Source of the DNA: a virus
Taxonomy: Duplodnaviria; Caudoviricetes
DNA: 64,000 bases
IMG/VR virus record: IMGVR_UViG_3300029305_003192
Direction: 5' to 3' (one strand)
This document shows positions 2,832 to 39,000 of the stretch, one piece after another. A program made the translations under genes and the position numbers. Numbering within the stretch: position 1 is the stretch's first letter; each line of letters begins with the position of its first letter. The notes under the pieces are model-generated. The model searched no databases and was not told the DNA's origin. It was given only the letters and a program-made list of their open reading frames with translations.

Positions 2832-4892
2832 TCAGATATTCACGATGTTAGTATAATGCTGTGTTGTTGCACCTGTCTTCTGAATCTTTGGACCAAGTGG
2901 GTCGATGATAGGATTGATAAGGTTAACAACGTCTGTGATAATTTTGGATGAGTTGATTATATCTTTCATCCATGCTGGTAGATTAGTCATATCACGCGGT
3001 TTAGCTATACATGTGATAGACATAGTCCATTCATACTCATTAGATGACATAAGAATGTTCCGATAATAATTCTCGAAGATTTCTCTGTGCTCATAATATA
3101 GCTTCTTAAAAGGAACTGCTGCATCGGATTCTTTACTATTAAAGAATGCCTCTGGGTCATCACGCATCATGAGATACTTCTTCTTTGACATACCAGTATC
3201 CAGTGTAACTGGAACCAGGTCGACTTCAGCAGGGAATGCCATCTCTTCTGCAGGGTTAAATGCGTTCCAAAGATGCACCGCTTTATATCCCTGATTAGAC
3301 AATGGAGCTTTATATCTTGCAGCGGGATGAACCGTAAGCTGCTTATAGAGTGAGTTATCACCTTCCTGAAGCAGTACCTTAATCTCTGCTTCATATTCTC
3401 TTACAGCTCTTAGAATATTTCTCAAATCGATCTCCGGTGCAAGGATAATCTGGGTATCAATAAGCTCATGACATTTCTGTCTTACTGATTCCTTAGTACC
3501 GGCTTTCTTAAAGTCAAACCCAGCAACTACACGCTGGTTGTCGATGCCATTGATGAATTTACCCTCTTGGAGTAATACCTGACCAAAGTATCGTTTCTTA
3601 GCAGTACCAAATACGATAATTGGCCAATAAAGCTCGTTCTTCATTGCAAGCTTCTTACCCCACTCAGGGGCAATCTGTCTAGCCTCAGTAAATGATTCAA
3701 ATGCTTCTGAGATAGACATAGTCAGAATCATTGTGAAGATATTTACCGACTTAAATGTGAACTCATCCTTATTCTCAGTGATAGCATTCTTAAGTGAGTA
3801 AGCATACATAATATACTTAACTACCGAGATGAAGTTAGAGTCCGTGTCGATATAAAGTACCGCAGACTTATTAGTGTATCTAGTTCGACGTACTCTATCG
3901 AATATCTGGTGCTTATAAAGTACGAATACTTTGAGCATCTTAATGATTTCAAGCAGTATTGATTTAGAATCGTCACGTGCTACAGTATCACACCATTCTT
4001 CGCCCATAAAGTCGAATGTATCGATATCACCATTACGGAGAATGATGATAGAGTTGAGAAGCTCAGTATTAATTGACTGACAGAAAGGTATATTGAGGAA
4101 TTCGAAGAGATTATTCTTATAATACATCAGCTTGAGACAGTCCTCATCGGCGGAAGCAATTATTCTCGATATAATCATTGCCTCATCTTCAGTGATATTA
4201 AAACCGACCTTATCTGCAAGTCTATCGGCTACCTGCTTAGATGTTACTGGTGGTACTCTTGAGAATAATTTAAGCTCCTCGTCCGTAAGCTTTTCATAAT
4301 CATGTATGATATTCATCAGATATAATACAAACTCTGTCACGTTGACGAACTTGATATTGTCCGATATGAAGTTCTCGAAGTGACATGTTGCTGTCGAGAT
4401 GATTGCCTGACCCATAGCAGTAGTAGCCTGAGCAAGGTTGACATTGAATAGATGAAATTTCATGTAACCGAGGATACCATAGAGAGAGTTAAGCATAATC
4501 TTCTTGTTATTTTGTGCTAAGTCATACATCTGCCATTCTGTAGTACCTTTATCGAACGAATCCCTCTGTTTCTTGAGAGCCTTACGCTCTTTCATCAAGT
4601 CTGCAATCCATTCAGCAAGCAGACTCAGTTTCTGGGAATGTTGTACAAACATGCACCCATCCCCACCAAGGACAAGATTGTTTGTCAATATGAGTGATAT
4701 GACAACGGTCAATGATGAGCGTATGGATGTATTGCGATAGTTATTAACCATTGTACATTTAGGGTCCTTGACCTCTATATTATATATTTTACGTAGGGTC
4801 TTTTCCAGTACCTCTTCATCCCAATCAGGATGTGCGGTTCTAAGAACTTCTGAAGCCTGGGATACCCATTTATCTTCAAATCTTAGTGCCAT
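2832..4892 (-). CDS. polB: Family B DNA polymerase, polymerase-domain half of a split enzyme
   Basis: Motif [10 protein letters not shown], motif C YIDTDS and KKRY are present; the exonuclease domain and motif A are absent and are encoded at 26333-28213. Confidence 0.9.
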
Positions 4893-5044
4893 AATTTACC
4901 TCCTATATTTTTGCGTTATACTATTGATGATAACATCATTCTTCGCTAGAATATAGACTTGAAATGATTATTAATTAAACAACTCATGTAATGTATGCAA
5001 ACATATGTATGCACAATATTAATCCTAAAAGGAGGAATTGTAAT

Positions 5045-5644
5045 ATGTCATCTTTTGATTCAATGTTCGAAGGTCTCTTCGAGAACAACGATGAAGATAT
5101 TGCTGCTGGTGCCATGGAATCTACAGTAGGCGATGATTTTGCATTTCTCGATGAAGGTGCTGCTGAACTGACTCCCGCTGCTGAATCCGCTATTTTCCTC
5201 GAAACTCTTATGGATAGCTTCGATGATCCTAACGAGTTCGCAGATTATGCTATGGAAAATGCTGTATACTGGGAGACATACGGTCTCATCGACAATGCTA
5301 CAGAAGCCCTCGAAGCTGTTAAGAAGTTCCAGGTTGATAACTGGAAGCAGGTCAACTTCGAAAGACTCTGGAAGAGAGAGTGTATCCGTATCGAAGCTCG
5401 TAAGGATACAACTACTTGGAAGAAGTATGCTCTCCACAGAGGTAAGATGAGAGAAGCACGTGATGAAATCTTCCGCAAGAACAAGACTCAGGCTATGAAG
5501 AACGTTCGTGCTGCACAGGCTAACTCTAAGAGAAAGGTTGCATCCATGAACACATCCGGTTCAAAGGACCTCCAGTCCAGACTTAATAAGTCTATCTCTA
5601 AGAGTACTTCTGGTAAGGATCCTACAACAGGCAAGCCTTCCTAA
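5045..5644 (+). CDS. Virion head protein with acidic propeptide
   Basis: Start at 5045 (SD AAGGAGG) after a late-type promoter. Acidic N-terminus with AMES/AAES/ALEA motifs, basic C-terminus. Confidence 0.6.
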   Translation: MSSFDSMFEGLFENNDEDIAAGAMESTVGDDFAFLDEGAAELTPAAESAIFLETLMDSFDDPNEFADYAMENAVYWETYGLIDNATEALEAVKKFQVDNWKQVNFERLWKRECIRIEARKDTTTWKKYALHRGKMREARDEIFRKNKTQAMKNVRAAQANSKRKVASMNTSGSKDLQSRLNKSISKSTSGKDPTTGKPS

Positions 5645-5654
5645 CAGACTAATT

Positions 5655-5686
5655 ATACCCAGATAACCATATGGTTATCTGGGTAT
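5655..5686. terminator. Perfect 32-bp palindrome / terminator
   Basis: ATACCCAGATAACCAT|ATGGTTATCTGGGTAT followed by TTTC. Confidence 0.7.
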
Positions 5687-5711: not shown

Positions 5712-5743
5712 CGTAATATCGGTATATAGTACGTATATATCAT
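5712..5743 (+). promoter_or_regulatory. Early-type phage promoter
   Basis: CGTAATAT-N14-TATATATCAT; same spacing at 10991, 18529 and 23934. Confidence 0.7.
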
Positions 5744-5749
5744 ATTAGT

Positions 5750-5960
5750 GAGAAAAATATATTTATGATTATCAATTCTCAGTTGGGACACCGGACGCCC
5801 GATCACGTCCGGATTCTATATGGTTGTGGTATGACGATCATATAGTCTAGGATTTTAAGATTGGCGTGGTACATACCGACTGCGCCCCAGGGCCGTGGCC
5901 TCCTACCAAAAACCCACGGAATATATCAGGATGACCAAACTGGTCATCCTGATATATTTA
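5750..5960 (+). ncRNA. Putative structured small RNA (kissing loops, anti-SD loop)
   Basis: Promoter-to-terminator unit with no SD-led ORF. Stems at 5791-97/5806-12, 5816-27/5834-45, 5863-70/5879-86 and 5893-98/5914-19. Confidence 0.6.
5920..5958. terminator. Bidirectional intrinsic terminator
   Basis: 18-bp inverted repeat AATATATCAGGATGACCA/TGGTCATCCTGATATATT between convergent units, with a T-tract downstream. Confidence 0.75.
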
Positions 5961-5971
5961 TATTTTTTTTG

Positions 5972-6661
5972 TTAAATGAGACGTCTAAAGCACTCCTCAA
6001 TCTTGTCCTTGACTTTAGAGAAGTCGCTTACTGATGCTACGAACTTATCGGCAAACATAGCCATTCTGTCAATCGCATAGTTGAGATTATATCGCTCAAC
6101 TTTCTTAAAGATATTAATATCTCCATGAGACAGTATGGATTTACGAGAATCGACTATTTTGTTGATTTGGTAATATACATCATGTCGATGTTCATATACG
6201 ACGAATCTGCAGAATACTAACAGTGCGTAGTAATTTTTATATTCCTTATTGATAGGCATTGCCATATCTCGGGCATAGTGCCACTGTTCGTTGATGAACT
6301 CTGATATATACATCATACGGTTCTTATTAATATCATCTATCACTCTGTCCGTAATAGATTCGAGCTGGTCGAGCTGGTCGATATATTTAGACCTAGCATC
6401 GTTACCATCAGTTATTGATAATATATTACGCATAGTATCTGTATACTCACCATGATACCAAGATAGGTTTATAGTTGTATCTTTCTTAAAGGTCTTCTTA
6501 CTGAGAGTAGCGAATTCCTTATCGAGTTTCTTGTTAAGGTGGATAGTAAACGGGTCATCTCTAAATACCGTATCCATGAGTTTCATGTATACGTCATATT
6601 CCTTAAGGGATGTCGGGTCATGATACCCACGCATGATTAAACTACTAGACATTTTATTCAT
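5972..6661 (-). CDS. Hypothetical protein (229 aa)
   Basis: ORF with GGAG SD; late motif on the minus strand at 6685-6697. Confidence 0.75.
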   Translation of the reverse strand: MNKMSSSLIMRGYHDPTSLKEYDVYMKLMDTVFRDDPFTIHLNKKLDKEFATLSKKTFKKDTTINLSWYHGEYTDTMRNILSITDGNDARSKYIDQLDQLESITDRVIDDINKNRMMYISEFINEQWHYARDMAMPINKEYKNYYALLVFCRFVVYEHRHDVYYQINKIVDSRKSILSHGDINIFKKVERYNLNYAIDRMAMFADKFVASVSDFSKVKDKIEECFRRLI

Positions 6662-10990: not shown

Positions 10991-11030
10991 CGTAATTTCC
11001 TCCTAGACCGGGTATATATCATATTAGTAG
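10991..11030 (+). promoter_or_regulatory. Early-type phage promoter
   Basis: CGTAATTT-N14-TATATATCATATTAGTAG. Confidence 0.7.
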
Positions 11031-11042
11031 AAATATAAGAGA

Positions 11043-11110
11043 TATCGCTAAGTTATAGGGCACTTAGCGACGTATAAAAATAGCCCTTCATAGTAGGAGG
11101 TAATACTATG
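11043..11110 (+). promoter_or_regulatory. Structured 5' leader (pseudoknot + SD/ATG hairpin), copy 1
   Basis: Nearly identical to 23986-24051. 9-bp stem 11045-53/11062-70; loop AGGGC pairs with GCCCT at 11083-87; CATAGTA/TACTATG hairpin. Confidence 0.75.
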
Positions 11111-11503
11111 AGAAACGTACTTGCAAACGCATTATCGCTCAATATGTTCAACCGTATGGTTCCAATGGATAACGATTATGGATATGCTGGTTTCGGTATA
11201 TCCGTAAAAGAGGTACGTCCAGAGGACGTGCCAAGGGACTGTGTGTCCATTATAGGACACACCGACACCGCTGCGGTGGTGTCATCAATGCTGGGATTTA
11301 ATGTCCCAGCAAACCGAATAGCCCATACAATAGAGAACGGTGACGTTCTCTTTGTGGCCCAGTACACGGGGCCACGACTCCCCGAGGGAGCCTCGAGGCT
11401 CCCTGAAGGAGGCATTATCCGGTTCTACCGGGTAATGGAAGTCGATCCGATACCCGACAACAACGGCTGTATCGGAGAAAGGAGGTTTTTCGTCGGCGAG
11501 TAA
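11108..11503 (+). CDS. acrIII-1: AcrIII-1 family (DUF1874 / STIV B116-like) ring nuclease, anti-type III CRISPR
   Basis: LANALSLNM, SIIGH (catalytic His), NR, VAQ and RLPEG motifs match the SIRV1 gp29/YddF family pattern (LANAFSINM...SIGH...NR...RLEEG). Confidence 0.88.
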   Translation: MRNVLANALSLNMFNRMVPMDNDYGYAGFGISVKEVRPEDVPRDCVSIIGHTDTAAVVSSMLGFNVPANRIAHTIENGDVLFVAQYTGPRLPEGASRLPEGGIIRFYRVMEVDPIPDNNGCIGERRFFVGE

Positions 11504-14429: not shown

Positions 14430-16280
14430 ATGATTAATTCCACAGTAAATTCTCTTGTTGGAACAATGTCACCGGTTGCTGCTTCACAGGCTTTCAAAGA
14501 TGACGTAGCTCACGTTATCCAGTCCTATGATCTGCAGGGCGGCAGTGCCATTGACAACATGCCTGTTATCGCAAGAAACAGCAGATGCCGTAGAGACTTC
14601 GTTGATATGGTAATGGAGTCCGTTGTAAACGATCCACAGCTTGCTTCTGGCGATGCTTCTCAGGATCCATTCTATTCTACATATGCTGACAGACTCGACC
14701 AGCTCCTTGAGAACTCTCTTATGGAAATGGCTCGTGAATCTGTTATGACAGGTTATGCTCCTATCCAGTCTTATGCACCATTCATGCTTAAGAGACAGTG
14801 GGTATCCTGCGTATGGAAGGACGTTCTTGCAGCAGACGTTGCTAAGTCCAATATCATCAAACTTCAGATGGAAGAAAGATGGGTAAAGGATGCTGAAGGT
14901 CAGAGATACAGAATCCCTGATGTATACTACAACAAGGATCTCATGGCTAAGCTCTTCAACGATGCTACAGGTATCAACCTTAAGCACGGCGAAGAAGACT
15001 TTATCGAACTTCCACTCCAGAACGAATGCCTTATCGCTCCTGATAAGAATTACTTCGAATCTGCTATCACTAACCCTAATTCCGAGACACTTACACATGA
15101 TTATACAATCTTTGAAGTAGTATTCGAAATCGGCGGCAAGGAATACAGAGTTCCATGTGATATCAAGCCTGACCTCTCTTCTCACGTACTCATCAACGGC
15201 AACAATGTTAAGTGCGTATACGAAGATGAAAACGGTGAAATCAAGTCCGAAACAGACTCCATTGTTGGTAATGTTGACTTCCAGACAGGTACAGTATCCG
15301 TATTCTCTACAAACGGTCTCATCAAGAAGTTCCGTCACAAGGGCAAGGCTGCTAACCGCTTCAACCACAGATCACTCTCCGTTGAGAGAACAATCAAGCC
15401 GCTCACATTCTACATGCCAGAATCCGGCCCAAGACTCAACGCTGCAGTAACTATCGAAGAAGCTCAGGACGCTATCGTTCTTAATAACACAGACCTCTAC
15501 GCTGATAACACTGATATGATGGGCGACGTTCTCGCTAACCTCCAGGATATCGGCATCAAGTCATTCGTTGAGAACTCCTATGAAGTTCACAGCAAGGCAA
15601 TCCAGGGTCCATTCGGCTATGAAGACAACTTCACAGCTTCCGGTTCCTTCAATGCAGTTCCAATTCAGAACTTCTCCATCGGTATCGACGCTTGGATGAA
15701 CCAGGCTAAGGAATACTTTGAGAGAGTCGTTGAAGAGCTTAAGTATAAGCTCAAGACACCTGACATCATCATCTGTGCTGTATGTCACCCATCTCTCGTA
15801 AGATACCTCAAGGCCGACGTTCGTTGGATCTTCTCTGACCAGACAGATGTATCTGGTGTTAAGCTCGCATACAAGGTTGGTGTTACAAACGCTAACGGCG
15901 ACAGAGTTCACATCATCACATCTACATACATGAGCCCTGAAGACCCAGTAAGACTCATCGTTATCCCAACAACAACTGAATGTATCACATTCAAGCATAT
16001 CATGCACTCCGCTATTATTGACAGAGGTTACCAGAACCCACTCGAGCCACTCGTACCAAACGTAATGGCTACTCAGAGAACTCTTACTTTCGAAGTAACT
16101 CCAGTTCAGGGTACATTCGAGATTACAGGCAGAGCTGGTAATACAAATTACGTGAATGCTAACGGCTTTATGTCCGGTCACGCTCCTAACGAGTACAACG
16201 GCGCATTTGTTGTAAACAACACAACAGCTGGTGGTACAGCAACAGGCGGCACAACTACAGATGAAACAACTGGCGGTTAA
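14430..16280 (+). CDS. Major capsid protein precursor (probable)
   Basis: 616 aa with strong high-expression codon bias, its own late promoter (AACA-GTCATG-TAA at 14364) and terminator, a candidate ARES cleavage site near residue 100, and a position after the protease and scaffold-like genes. Confidence 0.75.
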   Translation: MINSTVNSLVGTMSPVAASQAFKDDVAHVIQSYDLQGGSAIDNMPVIARNSRCRRDFVDMVMESVVNDPQLASGDASQDPFYSTYADRLDQLLENSLMEMARESVMTGYAPIQSYAPFMLKRQWVSCVWKDVLAADVAKSNIIKLQMEERWVKDAEGQRYRIPDVYYNKDLMAKLFNDATGINLKHGEEDFIELPLQNECLIAPDKNYFESAITNPNSETLTHDYTIFEVVFEIGGKEYRVPCDIKPDLSSHVLINGNNVKCVYEDENGEIKSETDSIVGNVDFQTGTVSVFSTNGLIKKFRHKGKAANRFNHRSLSVERTIKPLTFYMPESGPRLNAAVTIEEAQDAIVLNNTDLYADNTDMMGDVLANLQDIGIKSFVENSYEVHSKAIQGPFGYEDNFTASGSFNAVPIQNFSIGIDAWMNQAKEYFERVVEELKYKLKTPDIIICAVCHPSLVRYLKADVRWIFSDQTDVSGVKLAYKVGVTNANGDRVHIITSTYMSPEDPVRLIVIPTTTECITFKHIMHSAIIDRGYQNPLEPLVPNVMATQRTLTFEVTPVQGTFEITGRAGNTNYVNANGFMSGHAPNEYNGAFVVNNTTAGGTATGGTTTDETTGG

Positions 16281-18488: not shown

Positions 18489-18522
18489 ATTATCCCATTA
18501 CCTATATAGGTAATGGGATAAT
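18489..18522. repeat. Palindrome family member (ATCCCATTACC...GGTAATGGGAT)
   Basis: 34-bp perfect palindrome; same arms at 23893-23927 and 28911-28937. Confidence 0.8.
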
Positions 18523-18528
18523 TTACAC

Positions 18529-18560
18529 CGTAATTTCCGTATATACTGCATATATATCAT
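18529..18560 (+). promoter_or_regulatory. Early-type phage promoter
   Basis: CGTAATTT-N14-TATATATCAT. Confidence 0.7.
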
Positions 18561-23933: not shown

Positions 23934-23973
23934 CGTGATTTTAGAGATAAGTGCATATATATTATATTAGTAG
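23934..23973 (+). promoter_or_regulatory. Early-type phage promoter
   Basis: CGTGATTT-N14-TATATATTATATTAGTAG. Confidence 0.7.
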
Positions 23974-23985
23974 CAATAAAGGAAG

Positions 23986-24051
23986 TATCGCTAAGTTATA
24001 GGGCACTTAGCGACGTATAAAATAGCCCTTCATACTGGAGGTAATAGTATG
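23986..24051 (+). promoter_or_regulatory. Structured 5' leader (pseudoknot + SD/ATG hairpin), copy 2
   Basis: Matches 11043-11092 except for one A; CATACT/AGTATG hairpin. Confidence 0.75.
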
Positions 24052-25565: not shown

Positions 25566-26336
25566 ATGATTAGAGTTATTAAGAATGCGTCTGAATTAGA
25601 GACGAATATTCCCGGTATACGCAGCGAGAATGCTAAACGGTATTATTGTGATTATGCCATGGATCCATGGTCATCATCAGAGTTTATGTCCAGTGAAGAA
25701 ATTCAGATTGGAGATAATGAATATCAGATACGTTTTATATCTGAGATAGAATTCACGAATTACGGAATCGATATAAACGATATAACCGAGATATATACTG
25801 AATTGGTGTTGTTGAAGAGGGCTAAGACCAGGGGTCAGGATCACTTATATTTAGTGGTACGAGATAAGCAAACAGACATACCCATTGGTGTAGTACTGCT
25901 CAACGTATTTTTATCACAGGAGGATGAGGATGGTATACCTGATTTCGACGCATTGATTGATGTCAGTATCGGTACTTGCTGTGAAGCATATGTCGTACGC
26001 GAAATAGACAATATTCGCACATTAATGGGTAAAGGTATGATAAACGAGGCAGCAGTGGTAGTGGCATATAATATGGTATTAGCATTGAAAGAACTGCATG
26101 TTAAACTGCGACTTGCTGATAATGATAAAGAATTCGATATTAATTATGAGCCGACAATCGACGACCTTACGGAATTCGTATCCATATATCAGGGATTCCT
26201 TAAGTCTGAACTTAAGAGGTTGGGTATCATTACGGCTCCCACCCAATATGAGAAGGACATCATAAATCTTGTCGATAATATCATGAATGCAGTCAATGAT
26301 TCAGAATATGTAAAATGGAGGAAGAAACATCCATGA
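25566..26336 (+). CDS. Hypothetical protein
   Basis: TATATATCAT motif at 25496; SD AAGGAG; ATGA overlap with the polymerase gene. Confidence 0.75.
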   Translation: MIRVIKNASELETNIPGIRSENAKRYYCDYAMDPWSSSEFMSSEEIQIGDNEYQIRFISEIEFTNYGIDINDITEIYTELVLLKRAKTRGQDHLYLVVRDKQTDIPIGVVLLNVFLSQEDEDGIPDFDALIDVSIGTCCEAYVVREIDNIRTLMGKGMINEAAVVVAYNMVLALKELHVKLRLADNDKEFDINYEPTIDDLTEFVSIYQGFLKSELKRLGIITAPTQYEKDIINLVDNIMNAVNDSEYVKWRKKHP

Positions 26337-28213
26337 GATTTTTAGGAAATGAAGCTGAAGGGCGTCACGTGATGCCCTTATCAATCATTTATGATAACCC
26401 ACGAGAGGCATCAGATATGTTGATGATTCTTTATAAGGACATCGATACCGGTGAGAAGTTCGTCAAGAATATCGAGAATCCTGAAATTGACATCTATATT
26501 GTCAAGGAGCAATATAGAAACCAGAGCCCAGCTGAAAATCCGCTTAATATGGACGGTTCATATCGTCCCGACTTCTATATGAAAGACCAGTGCGATGTGG
26601 TTAGGGTTAAGTATCGTAAGCGAAAGTATGCGGCTGCGAAAATACTCGGTATATCACCGGAAGATGTTGATGCTTCACCATATGTCGGCGGAACCGATAT
26701 GGATATACGTCATTGGTACTTTGTAGAATTCTTACATGAATACAGTAATGATTTGCCAAAGCCTATTAGCGTAGGATACTACGATATCGAAGCCGATACC
26801 AGAGGTTATGGTACTAATGAATTCGGTGATAATTATGGTAAATTCCCAATTACTGCAATCACTTATATATCAGACGTTCGAAACCAGGTATATGTATTCG
26901 TCCTCAATTGTCCGGAGTTCGGAAGAATGGATGAGATTATAAATAATACCGAAGGTTTGCGTCGAGAGATGCACGAAGAGTTTGATGAGAAGTTCGGTAC
27001 CATGGAGTATAACATCGTTATATTCGATAAAGAAATCGAAATGATAAACGCGTTTTGGGCATTGGTAAAGGCTGTTGAAGACGACTTCACCCTCGCGTGG
27101 AACGCACCATTCGATATCGGTAACCTGACATATCGACCAGCCGAACTGGGATATGACCCAGTATCAATTATTCATGACCCACGATTTGCTCGTAAGGTCG
27201 TGATATTCAATGAAGACAGAGCGACATTCGTTGCACATAAGAAGAGACATAAGATAACCTATACATTACCTACTATCCTGGACGACCACATGCGTATATA
27301 TTCCGGTGTCAGATCAGCTAGAGGTAAGCTTCCTAGTACAGCACTCGATAAAGTTGCTAAACGTGAGAAGATAGGTGGAAAGAAGACATATGAGGGTGAC
27401 ATCAACCAGTTCATGCTCACTAACTTCTGGGATTATATTATCTACAACGTTAACGACGTTCATTTGATGAGAGCTATCAATAATAAGGTCAATGATACTG
27501 GAGACATTTATTCACGTATGCTTAACTCAGGCGTGTCGAATGATGAGGTATTCGTATCCACTACTATCTGGGCACAGTATATCAAGAATGACCTCGAATC
27601 AAAACGTGGTAGATTCTTGGCTAATAATAAGAATAAATTCCTGGCAAAGACCCAAGAAATTATCGAGTATGGCTTCGACAGTGATGCTGTTGATGAAGAT
27701 GATGGAGACGATGAGGATGAATCCGATGAATGTCTCCAGGAGGTGCTCGGGGCTATTGCAGACCAGCAGAACCTTATCGATGAGAAGACGGGTAAGAAGA
27801 AGAAATTCGCAGGTGCTATAGTACTCGATACCCGTCGTACCAGATATACAGGTACTAAGATTAATGGTATGGAGTGCAACTTCGTACATCGACATGCCAT
27901 AGACCAGGATATCACATCCGAGTATCCTACAGCAATCACTATCAGTAACCAGTCAAATGATACATTCGTTGGAAAGATTTATGTCGACGATGCCGATGAA
28001 ATCAAACTCCCGTTCTATGAGCAATATAGCTTCTTGGATAATAAAGACGCTAGCGAATATAAGTGCAACAAGGCTGCACTTATGCTCGAGACAGCTATCC
28101 AGGGCGACTATATGATGGTAGGCGAGATAGCATTAGGATTACCTAAGTTGGCTGACTTAGAGAAGATGGTTATAAACATGGCCGGAGATAAACTTACGAA
28201 GGGAGATAAATAA
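26333..28213 (+). CDS. polB: Family B DNA polymerase, exonuclease + motif A half of a split enzyme
   Basis: ExoI YYDIEAD, ExoII WNAPFD, ExoIII YNVND, KFAGAIV and motif A DQDITSEYP. Confidence 0.88.
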   Translation: MRFLGNEAEGRHVMPLSIIYDNPREASDMLMILYKDIDTGEKFVKNIENPEIDIYIVKEQYRNQSPAENPLNMDGSYRPDFYMKDQCDVVRVKYRKRKYAAAKILGISPEDVDASPYVGGTDMDIRHWYFVEFLHEYSNDLPKPISVGYYDIEADTRGYGTNEFGDNYGKFPITAITYISDVRNQVYVFVLNCPEFGRMDEIINNTEGLRREMHEEFDEKFGTMEYNIVIFDKEIEMINAFWALVKAVEDDFTLAWNAPFDIGNLTYRPAELGYDPVSIIHDPRFARKVVIFNEDRATFVAHKKRHKITYTLPTILDDHMRIYSGVRSARGKLPSTALDKVAKREKIGGKKTYEGDINQFMLTNFWDYIIYNVNDVHLMRAINNKVNDTGDIYSRMLNSGVSNDEVFVSTTIWAQYIKNDLESKRGRFLANNKNKFLAKTQEIIEYGFDSDAVDEDDGDDEDESDECLQEVLGAIADQQNLIDEKTGKKKKFAGAIVLDTRRTRYTGTKINGMECNFVHRHAIDQDITSEYPTAITISNQSNDTFVGKIYVDDADEIKLPFYEQYSFLDNKDASEYKCNKAALMLETAIQGDYMMVGEIALGLPKLADLEKMVINMAGDKLTKGDK

Positions 28214-29272: not shown

Positions 29273-29301
29273 TTGCTATAAATCGATACAAAGAGTATAA
29301 T
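29273..29301 (+). promoter_or_regulatory. sigmaA/sigma70-type promoter
   Basis: TTGCTA-N17-TATAAT. Confidence 0.55.
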
Positions 29302-29307
29302 GATATC

Positions 29308-29977
29308 ACTATGGATACCGTAACCTATATTAGTATGTGTGGTACATGTACATGGTTATAATCCGAACGATACCATTATATCAAAACTTCCAACGGGTAT
29401 AGTGGTAGTGTATACATCTTATTCAGAGATATCAGATGTATACTTACGTTTTAACATATGATTGGTAGTACGAGGTTCGTTACTACCATTACAATATCGA
29501 TATCTCATCGTCATATGTTAGTAGTGTTTGGCTGCCAAACTATAAAGCCTATCATTCTTATTTTCTTAAAGAACACAATTTGTCATCTCTGTCCCTGACT
29601 AACTAAGTTCATCCTCTACTCCGGCATATTCAGATGCCATTGAGACTCGATACGTTGATGCCGGTTAGTATATGCTCGCATGCAGTGATTATATCATACG
29701 AACACTATTCGGTGATAGCTATCATATAAGACTCCAATGAGCTTCGTAATGAGTAGATTGACGAGACTGGATTTAATTCTAGTAGCGTATCGAAAGTTAT
29801 GCGGTTATAGATGAGCATTGATAGTTAAGCTGCTTTGGCTAGTAGTGCGATTATACACAGATATGGAGTATAAAATATCGCTATCATTTTATCCTCTCAT
29901 TAGTGAGTAGAGTTGAGCTTCTACGGATGGGTTAGAGTTATAATACCAGGTATACCATTAATGGTATACCTGGTATT
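29308..29977 (+). ncRNA. Putative large ornate non-coding RNA (~640 nt)
   Basis: No ORF >=60 aa starts or lies within it. Many 6-12 bp stems with G-U pairs on the plus strand, an 8-bp pseudoknot and a long-range closing stem. Bounded by a promoter and a 36-bp palindrome. Confidence 0.65.
29942..29977. terminator. Perfect 36-bp palindrome / terminator
   Basis: AATACCAGGTATACCATT|AATGGTATACCTGGTATT. Confidence 0.75.
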
Positions 29978-30061: not shown

Positions 30062-33000
30062 ATGGCTTCTAATAGAAGTAAAAGCAAAGTATTACAGAAT
30101 GCCGAGAAGGCATTTAAGTACTCAGCAGTACCGGCTATTACGAGTAAAGTACCGTATATGACTGGTACTGCACAGAGTGCTATATCAGTCGCGAAGGACC
30201 TTCGCGACTGGACAATCAGAAATAACCCGTTTAGAGCAGTGAATGGTAACAAAGACCCATTGATTAGACAGATCGCCACTGCAACCGCAAATGCTGTTAA
30301 ATCGGCAAAATTGGATCTTAAGTCTGGGGACTTGACATTTAGGAATCTAAATAAGGCTGTTAGAGATTTCGTAGGCGAAGATTCATTGTTGGACGGCTTT
30401 GATAATCTGGACATCGATTTCGGTTCCGACCTCGGGGACTCATTATTTTCGAATTCGGGACAGGACGACCAGACCTCTGATATTACCACCGCATCTGCAA
30501 TGATGGCAGTGGGCGACACGTTGTCACGAACTCAGGCGGTTACCACAGAGGCGATGATTGGTGCTGTAGAACATTCGACAGAAAGAATCACTAAAACCCA
30601 AATGGTTATGACTGATACTGCAGTAACACGACTAATATCCAGTAACATGACTATAGCCGCCAGGACTTCGACTCAATTAGGTACGATCTCCGAAGACATA
30701 AAAGTTGTGAATAAAAATCTCTCGCTACTGGTTGAGCAGTCGAACAGTTTCTCTTCATTTATCAACCAGTCACAGAGATATATGGAGCATACCGAGCAGA
30801 CATTGAACGATATTAAAGCATTATTGGAGGCCAGTCATTCTCAGGGTAAGAATGACGGATATGGTGGTAGTTATAATGACGGATTTATGTCTGGACACTT
30901 CGACATCAAAAAATATATCCACCATATATTCAATAATACATCCTCTGGTATCATTGCATCTCAGGTAATCGGTACCACTATGAAAGCTCTTAAGATGGAA
31001 CTGCCCTCATTTATTGATGAGATGAATGCTTTCTCCATCGGAGATTTGAATCCTCTCAAGATGGGTATTGAGAAGCTTATCCCTGCAATTGGAAGAATTG
31101 CTGATTTGGATAAAACTTTCGAGCGGTCGATTAAGATGTTCATGGCCAGACTTGCAGAAGGAGAATACGGAGGATTCCTCAATGGCTTAGGTGTAGAGGG
31201 ATTCGGCATGAGAGAGCGTAACCGTGTTATTTACGACTCGAGATATTACGAAAAAGGTAATATGCAGTGGAACGGTATGGCTCAGCGCGCTTTGATGGAG
31301 GTTATCCCAGGATACTTATCTAGTATGGAAGGCTATCTCAAACAGATAGCTGAGAATACATATAAAGGTAAAGATAGGTATGCACTTAACACATCGTCGC
31401 TCCGTCACTTCGATTATGATCTTGGGCAATTTGCAACTTTGAGTGATATACGCGAAAGAACTAAGAAAGAATTAACATCATCTCTTCAGAGTTCATATGA
31501 TAATTTCGTTGAGATGACAGAAAAAATCACCAATGGCTCGGACGAGCTGAACCAGGAGCTCACCAATTATCTGCGAAAGATTAATAGCTCAGAGAACGAT
31601 AGTAAGATTTCACGTAAAGAATGGATGAACGAATTTAAGGCTATCGTTGGAAAACATCGTAAAGATGGTATTACTGACGACCAGATAATGAAGGCATATG
31701 ATGCATTGGTATGGGCTCGAGAGCAGTCCCTAGACGAAAGGAACCGAATTCGTACGGCAGCTGCACGAAGAGAATCCAGTGCATTTTATCTTGGCGATGA
31801 GCTCAATACCATGACCCCAGACCTGGTATATAAGGGACTGAAGGAGATTAAGCAGGATCGATATAATTCGCTATCTGAAAATGATAAGAAAGAGGCCGAC
31901 CGTCAGAAACGAAACGAAGAACGGAGGAAGGGCTTCTTCGAAAAAACAGTAGCCAAATTGGGATTAACTGATGATGCTAAAGCAATAAAGGAAATGTTTA
32001 GCCATGGTGGTCCTATTAATAGAGGAGTGGACTTCGTATCTGATAAGCTTCAGGGAGTCTTACTGAATCTTATATACGGTGGCCTCAAGTCCTATGATGT
32101 CGGAAGTCAGAATATCCCTAATGACCAGGTAGCTAATATTCACAAGGGTGAAATGATTATCCCTAAGGATGTCGCCGACCAGATTCGTGCCGGTAATTTT
32201 GACAATGCGCAGGTTAAGGAATGGCTTAATATCACAGCAGGTTCTGTTGAGAATAGCACATCCGTACTATCGTCCATTCAGAGCATGTTCGTCGGTAACT
32301 CTAAGACCAAGTCTAAGACTCGTAAAGCTATGGGTGCTATGGTCGAATACGCCGATGACTATTATAAGGTAGCTATCGATGCTGAAGCTATCAAGGATGG
32401 CGACCTCAGAGGTATCTGGGTATCCATGCTCGAAAACATGGCTAACCAGACAGCTATTCTCGCACATAATGCCGAAAGAGATGCAGGATTCGATGATAAG
32501 GACGGTCGTAGTGACCTTTCTAAGAGAATTCTCGGTGAGAAGGATAAGAATGGCCTCTATAAAGGCACTATGTTTAGTCAATATGCTAACATAGGTCTTG
32601 ACTTTAAGAATGCCATCAGACATGCCATGTATGGCGAAGAGTATATTACGTCAGAAGGCGTTAAGGTCGCTAAATCGGATGATACAGTTCTCTCTACTTT
32701 ATCTAAGGGTATGAAGAAAGCTGGTGATACAGCTCTTTCATATATCTTTGGAGAAGATTATAAAAATACCAAACAGTTCAAGGCAGTATCAAAAGGCTAT
32801 AGTGAACTCAAGGCAGGTATTACTGGTAAAGCATCAGACGGAGTTCAGCTGACTCCGGATGAAGAAAAGGCTGTCGAAGAAGCACTTCAGCAGACAGCTG
32901 ATAAGGGACTTGAACTTAATAAGAAACTCATTGGTCACGTTAAGGGTGGCCTGTTAGGTGCAATTACCGTAGGTGGTATTGGTCTTATGGGTGGCGGTGG

Positions 33001-36000
33001 TGTAGTGCCAATGCTTCTCGGAGCAGGTGGACCTATTGGTGGTGCAATTATCGGTGCGGGTCTTTCTATTCTCACTAGAAACGAATCCTTCATGGATAAG
33101 ATGTTCGGTGAGATGAAGGATGGTGAACGTGTCGGTGGCGTAATCTCCAAGGAGATGCAGGAAAGATGGAAAGACCTCGGTAGTAAGCTCCTTGGTCCGG
33201 CAGTACTTGGTGCAGCTGGTTCATTTATCTTCCCTAAACTTACTAGAGGTATACTTGGACCGGTTGGTTCATTTATGCTTGGTACTGGACCTATCGCAGG
33301 CGCTGCACTTGGTATAGGTGCATCTCTCATCATGAAGAGCCAGCCAGTGCAGGATTTGCTCTACGGTGAAGAGGGTAAAGGTGGTAATACCGGATTAGTT
33401 GGTAGTGTTAAGAACGCTGCAAAGGATTTCTGGAATAAGAATAAGCAGCATGCGGGTGCTATGGGACTTGGAGGTATCGGTGGTGCTCTCCTAGGTCTCA
33501 AGGGTGCTGGTGCATTAGGACTTGGTGGATTCGGTTTAGTCGGTAGCATTGTGGGCATGTCTATCCTCGGTGCATCATTCGGCCTTAAAGCCACATCTGA
33601 TAAGTTTAAAGACTTCCTCTTTGGTTCCAGAAAGTTTAAGAGAGATAAGAATGGAAATCTCGTTCCAGACGGACGTGATGGTGATGGCCTTATCGGTAAG
33701 ATTTCTCGTAAGTTCATTACTAGTGTCATGACACCTGCTCGAGTATTCGCACGTTCCATTTCACGTAACTTCACAGAGTGGATTCGATATGATGTTGCAC
33801 ATCAGCTCAAGTCTGCATTTGAACCATTTACCCTTGCTATCAAGGGTGGCGTCCAGGGTATTGCTGACGGCATGCATGCCGTTACCGATAAACTCATGGA
33901 CCTCGCTAAGAAAATCACTAACCCGATTAAGAAAATCGTCGGTGGGCTTCTTAAATTTGCTGGTAAGACAGTAATGGGCGGTCTTAAGACAGGTGCATCT
34001 ATTGCCGGTGGTGTAATATCTGCACCTCTTAAAGTATTAGGACACTTTGGTCGTAGATTCTCCAAGAAATACGATCCAACAGTTGCTGCTAATAATAAGA
34101 AATTCCGTTTTGGATATACCGATGCGAGTGGTAAAAAGCATCGAGGATTCTGGAACCCTCTTCAGAGGCTTGCTGATGCAAGGGATGCGTTCCTCGATAG
34201 CGATGGGGGCTTCTTTGACGCTCTTGCTGCGGGTGGTCATATGCTCAACCCATTCACTGCATATGCTGATGCTAAATATCAGTACTCCAAGGATACGGGA
34301 TATAATAATGCTGCATTCTTAGGAGGCTTCTTCGGTGCAGCTGGTCAGAAGCATCGACAGATTAAGAAGGCTAATAGACGTAAAGATAAAATGGAGAGCA
34401 GGATTGCCGATTGGACAGCAGAGTGGGCAAAGAAGGACAACTGGAACGATAAGGTTATCCTCAATAAGAAGGAACTCAATGCACGTAATAGCCGTCTCAG
34501 AAAGATAATGGGTAAGGACTACGATAAAGTCCTTGATAGATTCGGTAATAAGAGCGGTTCTCTTACCAGTGAAGAGATGATTCAGTTCATGTACGACCCA
34601 TTTGGTAAGAAGAAAAGCGAAAAGGATGCTCAGGCTAATACAGCTAAAAAGGCAAATACATTCCTTCAGGATATCAAGCATATCGCATACGAAATACTCC
34701 AGTTCGTCTCTGGTGGCAAACCAAAAGGCGCCCCTTTATCAGGACCAGTTGCTAAGATTGGTAATGCGTTGGCTCCTAAAGGTGGTTCCAAGAGAAAACA
34801 GTCCAGAAATAAGGGCGCTGTCGACAGTAGCATGTACGACTTCATGAAGCAAGCAAAAAGTAGAGGCTTCGGCAGTATTAGTGCAATTGCCAGTGCTACT
34901 GGTATAGATGTAAACGACCTCAAAAATTTCCTTGCTGGAAATCGTGACGCGATTAGTGGTAAAGCCAGACGATCGATGTTTAAACAGATGGGTTATATCG
35001 ACACATCAACGTTCGGTGGTAAAGTAAAGAAAGCATTTACAACTCAGCATGCACTTGCTAAATATATAACCGACGGTCAATATCGTAAATCGGTAAATCA
35101 AAAACTTGAAAGTAAATCCAACGTGTTTAAATATGCATTGAATGCTGGATACCGTAAGAGTTTACATCAGCAGTATAATGTTACGAGTAGTAAGAGTCTC
35201 CTCGATTGCGTAATAGATGCTGGTTATTTCTATGGCATTAAGCAGGATAAGAAGGTCGATTATAGAAAATTATCAGCTGATACAGGAATCGACCCCGACA
35301 AACTGAAGAACCTCCTTGAGGGTCGAGAAGATGACTTGAAGGATGATGAGAGGACTATATTATATGATAAGGTAGGGTACGTCGGTGATAAGTTCCAGGC
35401 CGGTAAACTTATCAAGAACATGATAGGAACTAAGGTTAAGAATAAAGTCAATTCGATAAAAACCACCCTATATAATAAGACACAGCCATTACGTAATGCC
35501 GCTAAGAAAGTCCAGAGTGGAATCGGCGTAATTAAAGGCAAGATCGCTCCTCTTCAAGATAAGGGTAAGGAACTGTTTAAACAAGCATCAGAAGCTGCGA
35601 AGTTTAAGCTCGACAATAAGATGACCAGTAAACAGAAAGAATTCATGCATAAATATCTCACACCATATGAGATAAAGATATTCAAGCAACTGTCTATATC
35701 TGAGCGTAATAACATAATGAGATTGTGGGCTACTGATGATGGTCGCTCTGCAATAGCAGCATTGCAGCAACATGGCAAGGAGCTTAAGAAAAAGACAGAT
35801 GCCAATCGTAAGAAGCTCGGTCGTAATGTAGCAATGACTGATGAAGAAAAAGCTACATTTGAATGGCTCAAGGTCAACGCTAAGAAATCTAAATTAGAGC
35901 CAGATGTACAGAAGACATGTCTTAAGGTATACCGTAAGATGACATCTACCGAAAGGGCAGAAATTGAGGTATATCGTAAAAACAAAGACGTTGTGGGAGC

Positions 36001-39000
36001 ATTCACATATCTTAAAGACCATGCAGGAAAGATTAAATCGTTTGCTGAACGAGTTAAAGGCGCTGCGGGCGCTCTAAAGGCAGGTGCGTCCACGATAGCT
36101 GGTAAAGCCGCTGCGGGCGCATCCTCTATATTCGGTGCATTATTTGGAACAACAGGAGGTCTCAAATCCCTCGCTGGTATAGCGATAGGTGCAGGCGTCA
36201 TGTTCCTCTTTAATAAATTCCCAGGAATTATGGAGAGTATCAAGACTATTATTGGTAATATCAAGGATTGGTTCATGGAAACTGCATGGCCATTTATTAC
36301 TGATAAGATAGTTCCGGCTGCCAAGAAGATCTTTGAAGGAATCGGAACTGTAGTAGAGAAAATTTTCAACTTCATTGCCAACCCGGAAGAAGAGGGTGCT
36401 GCACTTTCTTCAAACTGGTTTACAGGAATGGATAAATCCGCAGAACAGTTGAAGGCTGAATCTGATACAGCTGCGAAGTATGGTTTATCAACTACAGAAG
36501 AAATGCTTAATTATGCGACTGGAGACCATGGAATATGGACTAGTGACATTGGTGATGGTGGTCTTGCAGAAATCGTTGGTAAAAAGGCGGGTTCTAAGTA
36601 TACAGCTAAGGATGGACTTATTGCAGCATATGTAGTTATCGGTAATGAGTACATGTTATACAATAACCCATTTATAGCACCGACAGTCGAGCAGTTGTCA
36701 GCATTTATCGAAGATCCTAAAATCTTAAAAGCCGTTAAGAAGTTCTATAAAGAAATTGCAACACAACGTGGAATTAAACCGAAGAAGTATGATGATACAT
36801 CGGCTTCCGATAGAAAAGCTGCTCTTCAGCAAGCTGTACAGTATCTGGAAGGTAAGTATGGTGGTCATAGAAACGTTCAAATCAACATGAATAACGCCGC
36901 TGGTATTACTATGGAACAGGCTGCTGCTAATGCAGCCGCAGAAGCATCAGGTAGTGTCGGCTCAGGCCACTTCATGCAGACTGACCCAAGATGGGCAAAT
37001 GCTAGATATGCAAATGCTGGTCGTGGTAATTTCTCCACTATGGGTAATGGTGGATGTGGACCTACTGCACTTGCTAATGCGGCAATGAGCCAGGGTGTAT
37101 CCACTAATCCTATGGCAGTAGCGCGTCTCTCCAGAAACGGCGGATATGCAGTAGGTGGGGGTACATCTGCTGGTCTATTCACTAACGGTGCTCGAAGACT
37201 TGGTCTTCAGTCTACAGCAATTGGAGCAGGCTCAATTAAGCGAGCACTTAGTAATGGTAACAGTGTCGTATTTGCTGGAAAGGGTAATGGCCTCTATACT
37301 AGAGCTGGACATATTATGTCTGCTCGTGGTATCGATAGACACGGAAATGTTATCGTTGATGACCCAATGAGACGCAATTCGGTAAGCGTCCCACTATCGA
37401 CTCTTGGTAGAGGTATGACTCATGCATGGTCTATTGGACGTGGCGGTGAGACATATACTGATAACAAGGGTAATGTTTATGAGAAGATAACCAGTTTTGA
37501 CCAGCTTAGTGCTGCAGCTAAGAAGAAAGATCTTACTAACTACTCCGACCAGGACCTCGGTATGCTCATGGCTAAATGCCAGAATGGCGAAGCCGATATT
37601 AATATAGCAGAATTTTACTTCCTTACATCACAACGAGAGATCAATAGAAAGAATGGTCTTGCAGACATGAGCTCTATGGACTATCATATCTCACTGCGTG
37701 GTGACGATAGTATGTTATATAATAACGTGCTTATGTACAACCAGACTAACGAGAAATGGAAGGATAAATTCCTCGTATACACTAATGACACATCAACTAT
37801 CGGTAATGCAGGATGTGTAGTTACTGCATTCGGCTCATTATTGGCCAACTTAACAGGACTCAACTATAGACCTGACTTTATGACAAATGCCATTGCCGGA
37901 AAGACTCGTACTGGCAATAGCCTGATTACTATTCTGGGAAATAGTAGATCCCCAAGTATTTCCAATGCAACGCCTCAAAGATTTCTCATTAATGGGCATA
38001 CGCATGGCCAGGCAACTAACAGTGAGGCAATTTATCCGAACTGGTATGAGCCACATGAAGGACCTTTTATGGGTAGTATGGATTGGTCTACTGGAACGAT
38101 GACGTATCATAGGAATAATGATGAGCTCAGGTTCCTCGATACTATCTCGTCTGGACCATTCGTTATCTACGGTGGTTCGATTTATAATAAGGATATGGAT
38201 AAAGTTTCTACTTATGGAACTGAACCAGGCACATATGCATCATCAATCTCTGGTTATACTCATATGCATCCGTTCTATCGCCCATCTGATGGAAAGATGT
38301 ATACTAACCACGCATACTTGGTAGTACCTAAAACATTTGGTGGAGCTTCATCCGTAGCTCAGCAGGAATATTATCTGTATGACCCAGGAAGTGGCCAGCT
38401 TGAAAATCAGGGACGTGCATTATCTTACAGTGCATTATTCTCACCACATGGTGGTGTACAGTCAGTATTCGGATTTTCCGGTTTGGCTAGTACTCCATTT
38501 GGCGGAGTTCTCGGTAAAGAACCTGCCGTGGAAGACCTCAATTGGTGGCAAAGTATGTATAATGCTGACGATCTTGCGGAACTTTATAGGACATCGTCCG
38601 AGCATACTCGTAGGAAGTATCAGTATGAAAATTCATGGACTGGCACAGATACATCAACCGATGAGTCCTCAGACGACAGTCTTCTGACAAAAATTATGAA
38701 TGCTCTCAGTGGTCTTGGTGATATTGCGATGGGACTACTGGGTAAAATATTTGGTGGTAAGGGAGACCTTCCAACCATGACCGATTATGCCAACCAGTCA
38801 GTTTATAACAACGGTGGAAGCGGAAGCGGTGGTAGTGGTGGATCCGGTTACGTTAGCAACGACGGTTCAATCTACTATAAGGGTGAGAAGGTCAGCAGTC
38901 GTGCTCTCACGATGGACCTCTCTAAATACTCGGACTATGACATTGCTATGTTACAGCAGCGAATTATGAAGGGTACCGAAGACGGTCTTACTATGAATGA

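Follow-up and report, generated by a model that had tools for sequence, protein, structure and literature searches.

What is encoded between a promoter and a terminator that enclose no recognisable gene? This question is raised by a short intergenic locus of an uncultured jumbo myovirus with a genome of ~240 kb, of which we analysed a stretch of 64,000 nucleotides (IMG/VR record IMGVR_UViG_3300029305_003192), hereafter called the window. Sister contigs come from ruminant-gut metagenome series, and proteins identical to the pair flanking the locus are also present on contigs of ~239.6 kb. The window encodes a divergent, split family-B DNA polymerase (PolB), a major head protein (14430-16280), a large terminase and a tail sheath. 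Two of its ORFs match family-B polymerase profiles, one at 2832-4892 on the minus strand and the other at 26315-28213 on the plus strand. They are thus on opposite strands with ~21 kb between them, which suggests that the polymerase is split or duplicated. In another part of the window a single ORF of 3,396 codons extends over 30062-40252 (plus strand); directly 5' of it lies a large ORF-free stretch (~29280-29977), in which no Rfam family reached its gathering score.

The locus occupies a gap of 327 nt between two convergent genes of unknown function. The upstream gene (4991-5644, plus strand) encodes the protein P0007 of 199-217 aa and the downstream gene (5972-6661, minus strand) a protein of 229 aa; a search of the PADLOC library with both proteins gave no match. 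The gap contains, in this order, the terminator hairpin of the upstream gene (5655-5686, plus strand, 14-bp stem), a 38-nt repeat (5712-5749), a body of 170 nt and a strong intrinsic terminator (5919-5970, plus strand). The upstream hairpin forms the stem-loop half of a terminator+promoter junction. The intrinsic terminator is composed of a 19-bp stem (5919-5959) with a 3-nt loop and a run of eight T residues (5963-5970), it adjoins the stop codon of the downstream gene, and the A/T-rich ends of its stem make it usable from both directions. An initial annotation, made from the nucleotide sequence, had described the locus as a promoter-terminator unit that lacks an ORF led by a Shine-Dalgarno (SD) sequence and is richer in GC than its surroundings. 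Both points were confirmed, since all parts of the unit were found, no SD-led ORF was detected between 5712 and 5970, and the GC content is 0.51-0.53 at 5800-5950 compared to 0.33-0.40 in the flanks. The predicted product is a non-coding transcript of ~215 nt (5750-5968, plus strand), both ends of which we infer from the promoter motif and the terminator that bracket it.

The 38-nt repeat (plus strand; repeat family D1) is a bipartite promoter-like motif, in which CGTAAT (5712-5717) is separated by 16 nt from TATATATCATATTAGT (5734-5749). The motif, CGTRAT-N16-TATATATYATA, has four copies in the window, all of them on the plus strand (5712, 10991, 18529 and 23934). Behind the other three copies we found structured leaders of 60-80 nt, followed by a GGAGG SD and then by small genes, and among the copies in the window only that at 5712 has no gene to drive. 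A hairpin followed by the motif is also seen in the sibling cassettes at 18509 and 23914. The gene at 11108-11503, which stands behind a sibling promoter, matches PF08960 (STIV_B116/AcrIII-1, a ring-nuclease family) with 31.1 bits against a Pfam cut-off of 26; it also matches Csx16 of PADLOC. In the sibling cassettes 10991-11107 and 23934-24048, unrelated genes are preceded by near-identical leaders of ~67 nt (91% identity). The cassette at 18529 has a different leader with the hairpin GCCAC-UGAUGAC-GGUGGC, and a similar hairpin, GUGG-CUGAUGA-CCAC, occurs in one of the replacement cargos described below (allele C).

The use of this motif appears to extend well beyond the window phage. A pattern scan of IMG/VR identified five exact copies in IMGVR_UViG_3300042923_000601 (G001), a complete jumbo phage of 246.7 kb, whose PolB is only 29% identical to that of the window phage. 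With one mismatch allowed, this genome holds at least 11 copies (loci L081-L091), compared to none for a reversed control. The motif lies 3' of a terminator hairpin in most of these copies, and in every copy it is located 5' of a leader of ~50 nt, a GGAGG SD and a gene. This recurrence with the same layout indicates that CGTRAT-N16-TATATATYATA is, as far as sequence pattern and gene order can tell, a clade-wide promoter class. The motif is unlike TTGACA/TATAAT and probably falls outside the host sigma-70 class. Its extended -10-like box and upstream element are reminiscent of the early promoters of phiKZ (PMC8244752).

The body behind the promoter, which we call allele A, is predicted to fold into four hairpins on the plus strand. 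These hairpins, the complementarity between two of their loops and the CCUCCU loop had been outlined in the initial annotation, and we recovered all of them at the same positions or within one base. HP1 (5791-5812) pairs 5791-5797 with 5806-5812 in a GC-rich stem of 7 bp that closes an 8-nt loop. HP2 (5816-5845) has a stem of 12 bp including two G-U pairs (5816-5827/5834-5845) and presents the loop GGUAUG (5828-5833). In HP3 (5863-5886), a stem of 7-8 bp (5863-5869/5880-5886) carries the loop sequence CAUACC (5872-5877), which is complementary to the loop of HP2. HP4 (5893-5919) joins CCGUGG (5893-5898) to CCACGG (5914-5919) over 6 bp and displays the 15-nt loop CCUCCUACCAAAAAC with CCUCCU at 5899-5904.

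Compared to dinucleotide shuffles, the fold energy of the whole unit gives z = -6.4. For the body alone, z is -2.4 on the plus strand, where 6 of 200 dinucleotide shuffles were equally good, compared to -0.3 for the minus strand. The structure is thus specific to one strand, namely that in the direction of the promoter. A reading as a minus-strand RNA was rejected, since the fold of that strand is no better than that of shuffles. In the full-length ensemble HP2 is robust, with pair probabilities of 0.87-0.99 and a loop that is 100% unpaired. The loop of HP4 is unpaired to ~0.9 on average, in agreement with its earlier description as exposed. HP1 and HP3 are not dominant pairings in this ensemble (probabilities of 0.24 and 0.23, respectively), and a long-range alternative between CAGUUGG (5780-5786) and CCGACUG (5876-5882) competes with a probability of 0.73. 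The sequence CAUACC is ~73% unpaired.

That the RNA belongs to no known family, as had been proposed, was supported by all searches with the covariance models of Rfam 15 and with ARAGORN. At the locus, Rfam hits with E values up to 10 were hairpin-type noise only, the best of them reaching 24.9 bits compared to a gathering score of 83, and there was no match to the models of Phage_pRNA (RF00044), manA, ROOL or GOLLD. No family reached its gathering score in the whole window, the replacement alleles B, C and D gave no Rfam match, and ARAGORN found neither tRNA nor tmRNA in the window and the alleles. Readings as a tRNA-like element, a riboswitch or a ribozyme were rejected because no model matches. 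A degraded protein gene was rejected as well, as neither an ORF nor a conserved frame is present in any allele.

A blastn search of 50,697 phage records returned no relatives of allele A, nor did a tblastn search of this set with the two flanking proteins. IMG/VR scans with the flank proteins, PolB and a 17-mer of the RNA, and searches with a conserved 24-mer of the flank in JGI metagenome contigs and GTDB genomes, likewise yielded no relatives of this allele, and a 24-mer of HP3 had no match in GTDB genomes. For alleles B, C and D, blastn against phages returned no relatives; the pattern of the core common to C and D was found neither in IMG/VR nor in JGI.

A different picture of the locus came from the sister phages, whose contigs were gathered via the flanking proteins and compared by blastn and alignment. 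Their DNA is 94-96% identical to the window up to 5751-5759 and 91-93% identical from 5957-5964 onwards, and it is unalignable in between. These break points delimit an exchangeable cargo at 5752-5962. We found four different cargos at this site, while some relatives have no cassette. Allele A, with its body of ~170 nt, is present in the window and in three further contigs (L010-L012), and all these copies are identical in sequence. Allele B (L002-L004) measures ~200 nt and folds with z = -5.0, allele C (L001) ~350 nt, and allele D (L007 and L009) ~300 nt with z = -3.9; the cores of C and D are homologous. Alleles B, C and D all have the conserved promoter motif. The upstream terminator hairpin is 100% identical in all allele-bearing relatives with full contig coverage (L001-L004), and the P0007 proteins encoded beside alleles A and B are 100% identical. 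The locus is thus a swap site, whose cargo differs between near-identical phages. Homologs in related phages, to which the initial annotation had looked for structural conservation, did not materialise: we found no diverged homolog of allele A, and the sisters carry unrelated cargos. Since, in addition, the copies of allele A are identical, its fold stands without covariation support.

The cargos have nevertheless properties in common. Their GC content of 0.41-0.47 is above that of typical spacers, and all of them fold better than shuffles. An SD-led or conserved ORF was found in none of the alleles. Apart from the core of C and D, neither the alleles among themselves nor an allele and a coding-cassette leader have modules longer than 11-15-mers in common. 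In a comparison of L007 with L009, cargo D agrees at 330 of 339 aligned positions (97.3% identity), whereas identity is 79% and 82% for the flanking genes of these two contigs and 78% for the promoter region. Cargo D therefore behaves as a separate unit, which was either swapped in the recent past or is constrained much more strongly than the sequence around it; its high identity could be due to a recent transfer and not to selection. The twin hairpins of allele C are separated by an insertion (L001:1349-1420, minus strand), in which AGGAGG is directly followed by AUG AUA UAA, that is, an SD-like box with a two-codon frame.

More distant relatives show the site in other states. In L008 (61% identity) only the bidirectional terminator is present, without a cassette. 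L006, from a lineage with 52% identity, lacks both the cassette and the gene for the 229-aa protein, and its upstream gene is directly followed by a DUF7484-like gene (L006:3603-3670). This arrangement indicates that the RNA cassette and the 229-aa gene are both lineage-specific insertions. In L017, a distant relative in which the homolog of the upstream protein is 40% identical, two tRNA-Leu genes (anticodons TAG and TAA) follow the terminator of the same gene on the opposite strand (L017:3153-3458). RNA genes are therefore found at this position in more than one lineage.

Do the complementary loops of HP2 and HP3 form a kissing loop? The two loop sequences GGUAUG and CAUACC match perfectly over 6 bp. 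A loop-loop match of at least 6 bp was reached by 2 of 400 and by 1 of 300 shuffles of allele A in two runs, and a 6-bp match between the loops of adjacent hairpins by none of 300. In a window-wide scan, twin hairpins with a 6-bp loop match were expected by chance ~1.4 times per 64-kb strand, and at laxer settings complementary twin hairpins are common, even inside genes. Taken alone, the match in allele A is no more than suggestive. Alleles C and D also have two successive hairpins with complementary loops just 5' of their terminators, and the same order is seen in allele A, where HP2, a linker of 17 nt, HP3, HP4 and the terminator follow each other. The loop pair of allele D is GUCAGG/CCUGAC (6 bp; 2 of 120 shuffles) and that of allele C is CCAAG/CUUGG (5 bp; 3 of 100 shuffles). 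We did not count the 5-bp match of allele C as evidence on its own, because such matches are common at lax settings. The first loops of C and D align with each other (GGCCAAG and GGUCAGG, respectively), and each of the two substitutions between them has its counterpart in the partner loop, where C to U is matched by G to A, and A to G by U to C. In allele B no complementary loops were found. The recurrence of the loop pair in C and D, in what is a small sample, is the best support for a kissing loop, and it lends some weight to the idea of a decoy or oligomerising RNA, which the initial annotation had also raised. An RNAalifold model of the C/D core with 54 pairs contains 9 compensatory, 7 one-sided and 10 broken pairs; with two lineages to draw on, this covariation is suggestive.

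Several explanations of the locus have to be weighed against these data. If the loops of HP2 and HP3 paired between molecules, head to tail, in the manner of phi29 pRNA or of the ROOL, GOLLD and manA assemblies, the RNA would assemble into rings, cages or filaments, with loop codes specific to each allele. Natural homo-oligomers that consist of RNA only have been documented, including RNAs of less than 200 nt (PMC12286853; bioRxiv 10.64898/2026.07.01.735769), which makes self-assembly a serious sub-hypothesis. The perfect complementarity of two well-presented loops and the analogous loop pairs of changed sequence in alleles C and D are consistent with it. However, the 17-nt linker also permits an intramolecular kiss, a pRNA-like three-way junction and matches to the pRNA, manA, ROOL and GOLLD models are lacking, allele B does not have the feature, and one 6-bp match could arise by chance at the frequency given above. 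Self-assembly is a long shot among the readings considered here. The initial annotation had favoured a trans-acting sRNA, the exposed CCUCCU loop of which would pair with GGAGG ribosome-binding sites (RBSs) and repress particular mRNAs or mRNAs generally. It is true that CCUCCUACC lies within the mostly unpaired 15-nt loop, that genes of the window phage use GGAGG SDs and that C-rich stretches occur in each allele. Matches to RBSs of the window reach 8 nt at most (GUAGGAGG, at the SD of the AcrIII-1-family gene that starts at 11108). But a best match of 8 nt is at chance level, and so is the number of GGTAGGAGG-like sites, 7 of which were found compared to 7.7 expected. Complementarity does not exceed 12 nt anywhere in the 64-kb window and amounts to 10-12-mers at chance level. 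Moreover, CCUCCU is a single 6-mer, and a bare anti-SD would strike the mRNAs of phage and host alike. The C-rich stretches of C and D are predicted to be paired within their own RNA, and an exposed CCUCC loop is not common to the replacement alleles. The proposed anti-SD function thus found no support in the 64-kb window beyond the 6-mer itself, and we regard it as quite unlikely.

The locus may also have no RNA function. It could be an expression cassette that lost or exchanged its gene and was left vacant or decayed, or no more than an insulator, rich in terminators, between the two convergent genes. In line with this, the same promoter normally drives protein genes, and the cassette is dispensable in the related lineages L008 and L006. 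In addition, the contigs found in two bovine-gut metatranscriptomes, which derive from a related strain (95-99% identical), cover 5002-5588 only and thus end in the upstream gene, short of the unit, a coverage that is uninformative about transcription of the RNA. Such an origin would not account for four ORF-free cargos that are elevated in GC and all fold better than shuffles, for the strand-specific fold of allele A, which carries no leader module of the coding cassettes, or for a cargo D with far higher conservation than its flanks. The folding and conservation data are poorly matched by a vacant or decayed cassette, and we consider a locus devoid of RNA function rather unlikely. A micro-protein gene is by far harder to defend. 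The single ATG ORF of the unit (5765-5845, 26 codons, MIINSQLGHRTPDHVRILYGCGMTII) begins in unstructured, A/U-rich sequence ~15 nt past the presumed start site and might be translated from this short leader. It has, however, no GGAGG upstream, whereas the sibling cassettes have strong GGAGG SDs, and it crosses HP1 and HP2. Alleles B, C and D offer frames of 3-10 codons from their first AUG, with no peptide in common, and translation of this ORF as the purpose of the locus is extremely improbable.

Overall, our data demonstrate that the feature is real, non-coding and outside the known RNA families, and that it is best described as the exchangeable cargo of a promoter-terminator cassette. Our preferred explanation, to which we assign a probability of roughly 55%, is that a structured non-coding RNA of ~215 nt is encoded here by a gene of its own, the accessory cargo of a terminator+promoter swap cassette, and that this RNA depends on its shape for its action. 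The RNA would be transcribed from the motif at 5712-5749, probably early and together with the sibling cassettes; the early timing is deduced solely from the sibling cassette that carries the AcrIII-1-family gene. It would then fold into HP1-HP4, and pairing of the HP2 loop with the HP3 loop would compact the molecule or join copies head to tail. The folded RNA may act by shape, as a decoy or sponge for a factor of the host or of a rival phage, in counter-defence or host take-over, and probably not by seed-pairing antisense. This reading was suggested by the GC-rich, dense hairpins with presented loops, the replacement of the cargo at strain level and the counter-defence gene in a sibling cassette. 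A decoy or counter-defence role as such we infer from the association with neighbours and the variability of the cargo only. Exchange of the cargo would take place between co-infecting relatives, by recombination in the common promoter on the left side and in the T-run and the gene end on the right side.

The preferred reading can be extended to the site as a whole. Accessory, strain-variable phage loci are usually interpreted as protein anti-defence islands. The locus could instead be a hypervariable site for RNA cargos, at which near relatives among jumbo phages trade unrelated, highly structured early RNAs behind a single conserved promoter. These RNAs, several of them with allele-specific kissing loops, would serve as factors of counter-defence or of competition between phages. 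The kissing loops would in this case lock a compact fold or mediate self-assembly. We regard this extension as tentative and rather unlikely. If true, the locus would be the RNA counterpart of the anti-defence protein islands.

SD-targeting sRNAs of Firmicutes with C-rich loops, of the RsaE/RNAIII type, carry an unpaired C-rich loop 5' of a Rho-independent terminator. By general description the RNA studied here resembles them, as it also has an unpaired C-rich anti-SD loop before its terminator; it differs from them in that extended target complementarity (in the 64-kb window) and a conserved seed are lacking. In phi29-family prohead RNA (pRNA), the primary sequence drifts between relatives, with concerted changes in the sequences of the loops. 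Both RNAs are phage RNAs of similar size with two mutually complementary loops, and the pRNA has been shown to multimerise through its CE and D loops (PMC2241910). In contrast to the pRNA, allele A is a linear series of hairpins without a three-way junction or a match to RF00044, and it is encoded by a phage with a large terminase and a contractile tail instead of a phi29-type packaging motor, at a locus that is dispensable in relatives.

The organisation of the locus has a parallel in the promoter-early stem-loop (PeSL) cassettes of T4-type phages (Arbiol et al. 2010, PMC2839356; Comeau et al. 2014, PMC4122927). In both cases a terminator stem-loop and a conserved promoter form a composite element, copies of which are dispersed over the genome. 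Where close relatives differ by an insertion, deletion or replacement, this element coincides exactly with the break points, and the cargo consists of small accessory units. However, the lineage studied here is a jumbo myovirus with a divergent split PolB and not T4-like, and its promoter CGTRAT-N16-TATATATYATA differs from the sigma-70-type early promoter consensus of PeSLs. Furthermore, the cargo is a non-coding structured RNA instead of small ORFs, and recombination at the sites is deduced and not observed. Because of the different phage, the different promoter and the ORF-free cargo, we consider the locus an analogue of PeSLs and not a member of this group.

In jumbo phages, sRNAs have been identified by ONT-cappable-seq in 201phi2-1, with 11 sRNAs including three intergenic ones (PMC11512511), and in phiKZ (PMC8244752). 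Like the unit described here, they are short, have a start site that is closely followed by a terminator, and are of unknown function. They are backed by transcript evidence, whereas the present RNA is known from sequence alone. Moreover, the conserved one among them is derived from a 5'UTR and syntenic across genera, while the RNA studied here is hypervariable between near-identical strains. Our searches of the phage records revealed no sequence similarity to the sRNAs of 201phi2-1 and phiKZ. From these comparisons, what is new here may best be described as a variant of both phage sRNA genes and PeSL-like modular cassettes.

To our knowledge, hardly anything is known of what sRNAs do in lytic and jumbo phages. 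A folded RNA as cargo behind the type of promoter that also drives an AcrIII-1-family gene would suggest that jumbo phages have accessory functions based on RNA. The promoter motif, which is common to phages with only 29% identity in PolB, provides a handle for annotating this uncultured clade. Finally, four alleles and an empty site in nearly isogenic backgrounds constitute a natural experiment on the role of the RNA and on the folding or assembly of its loops.
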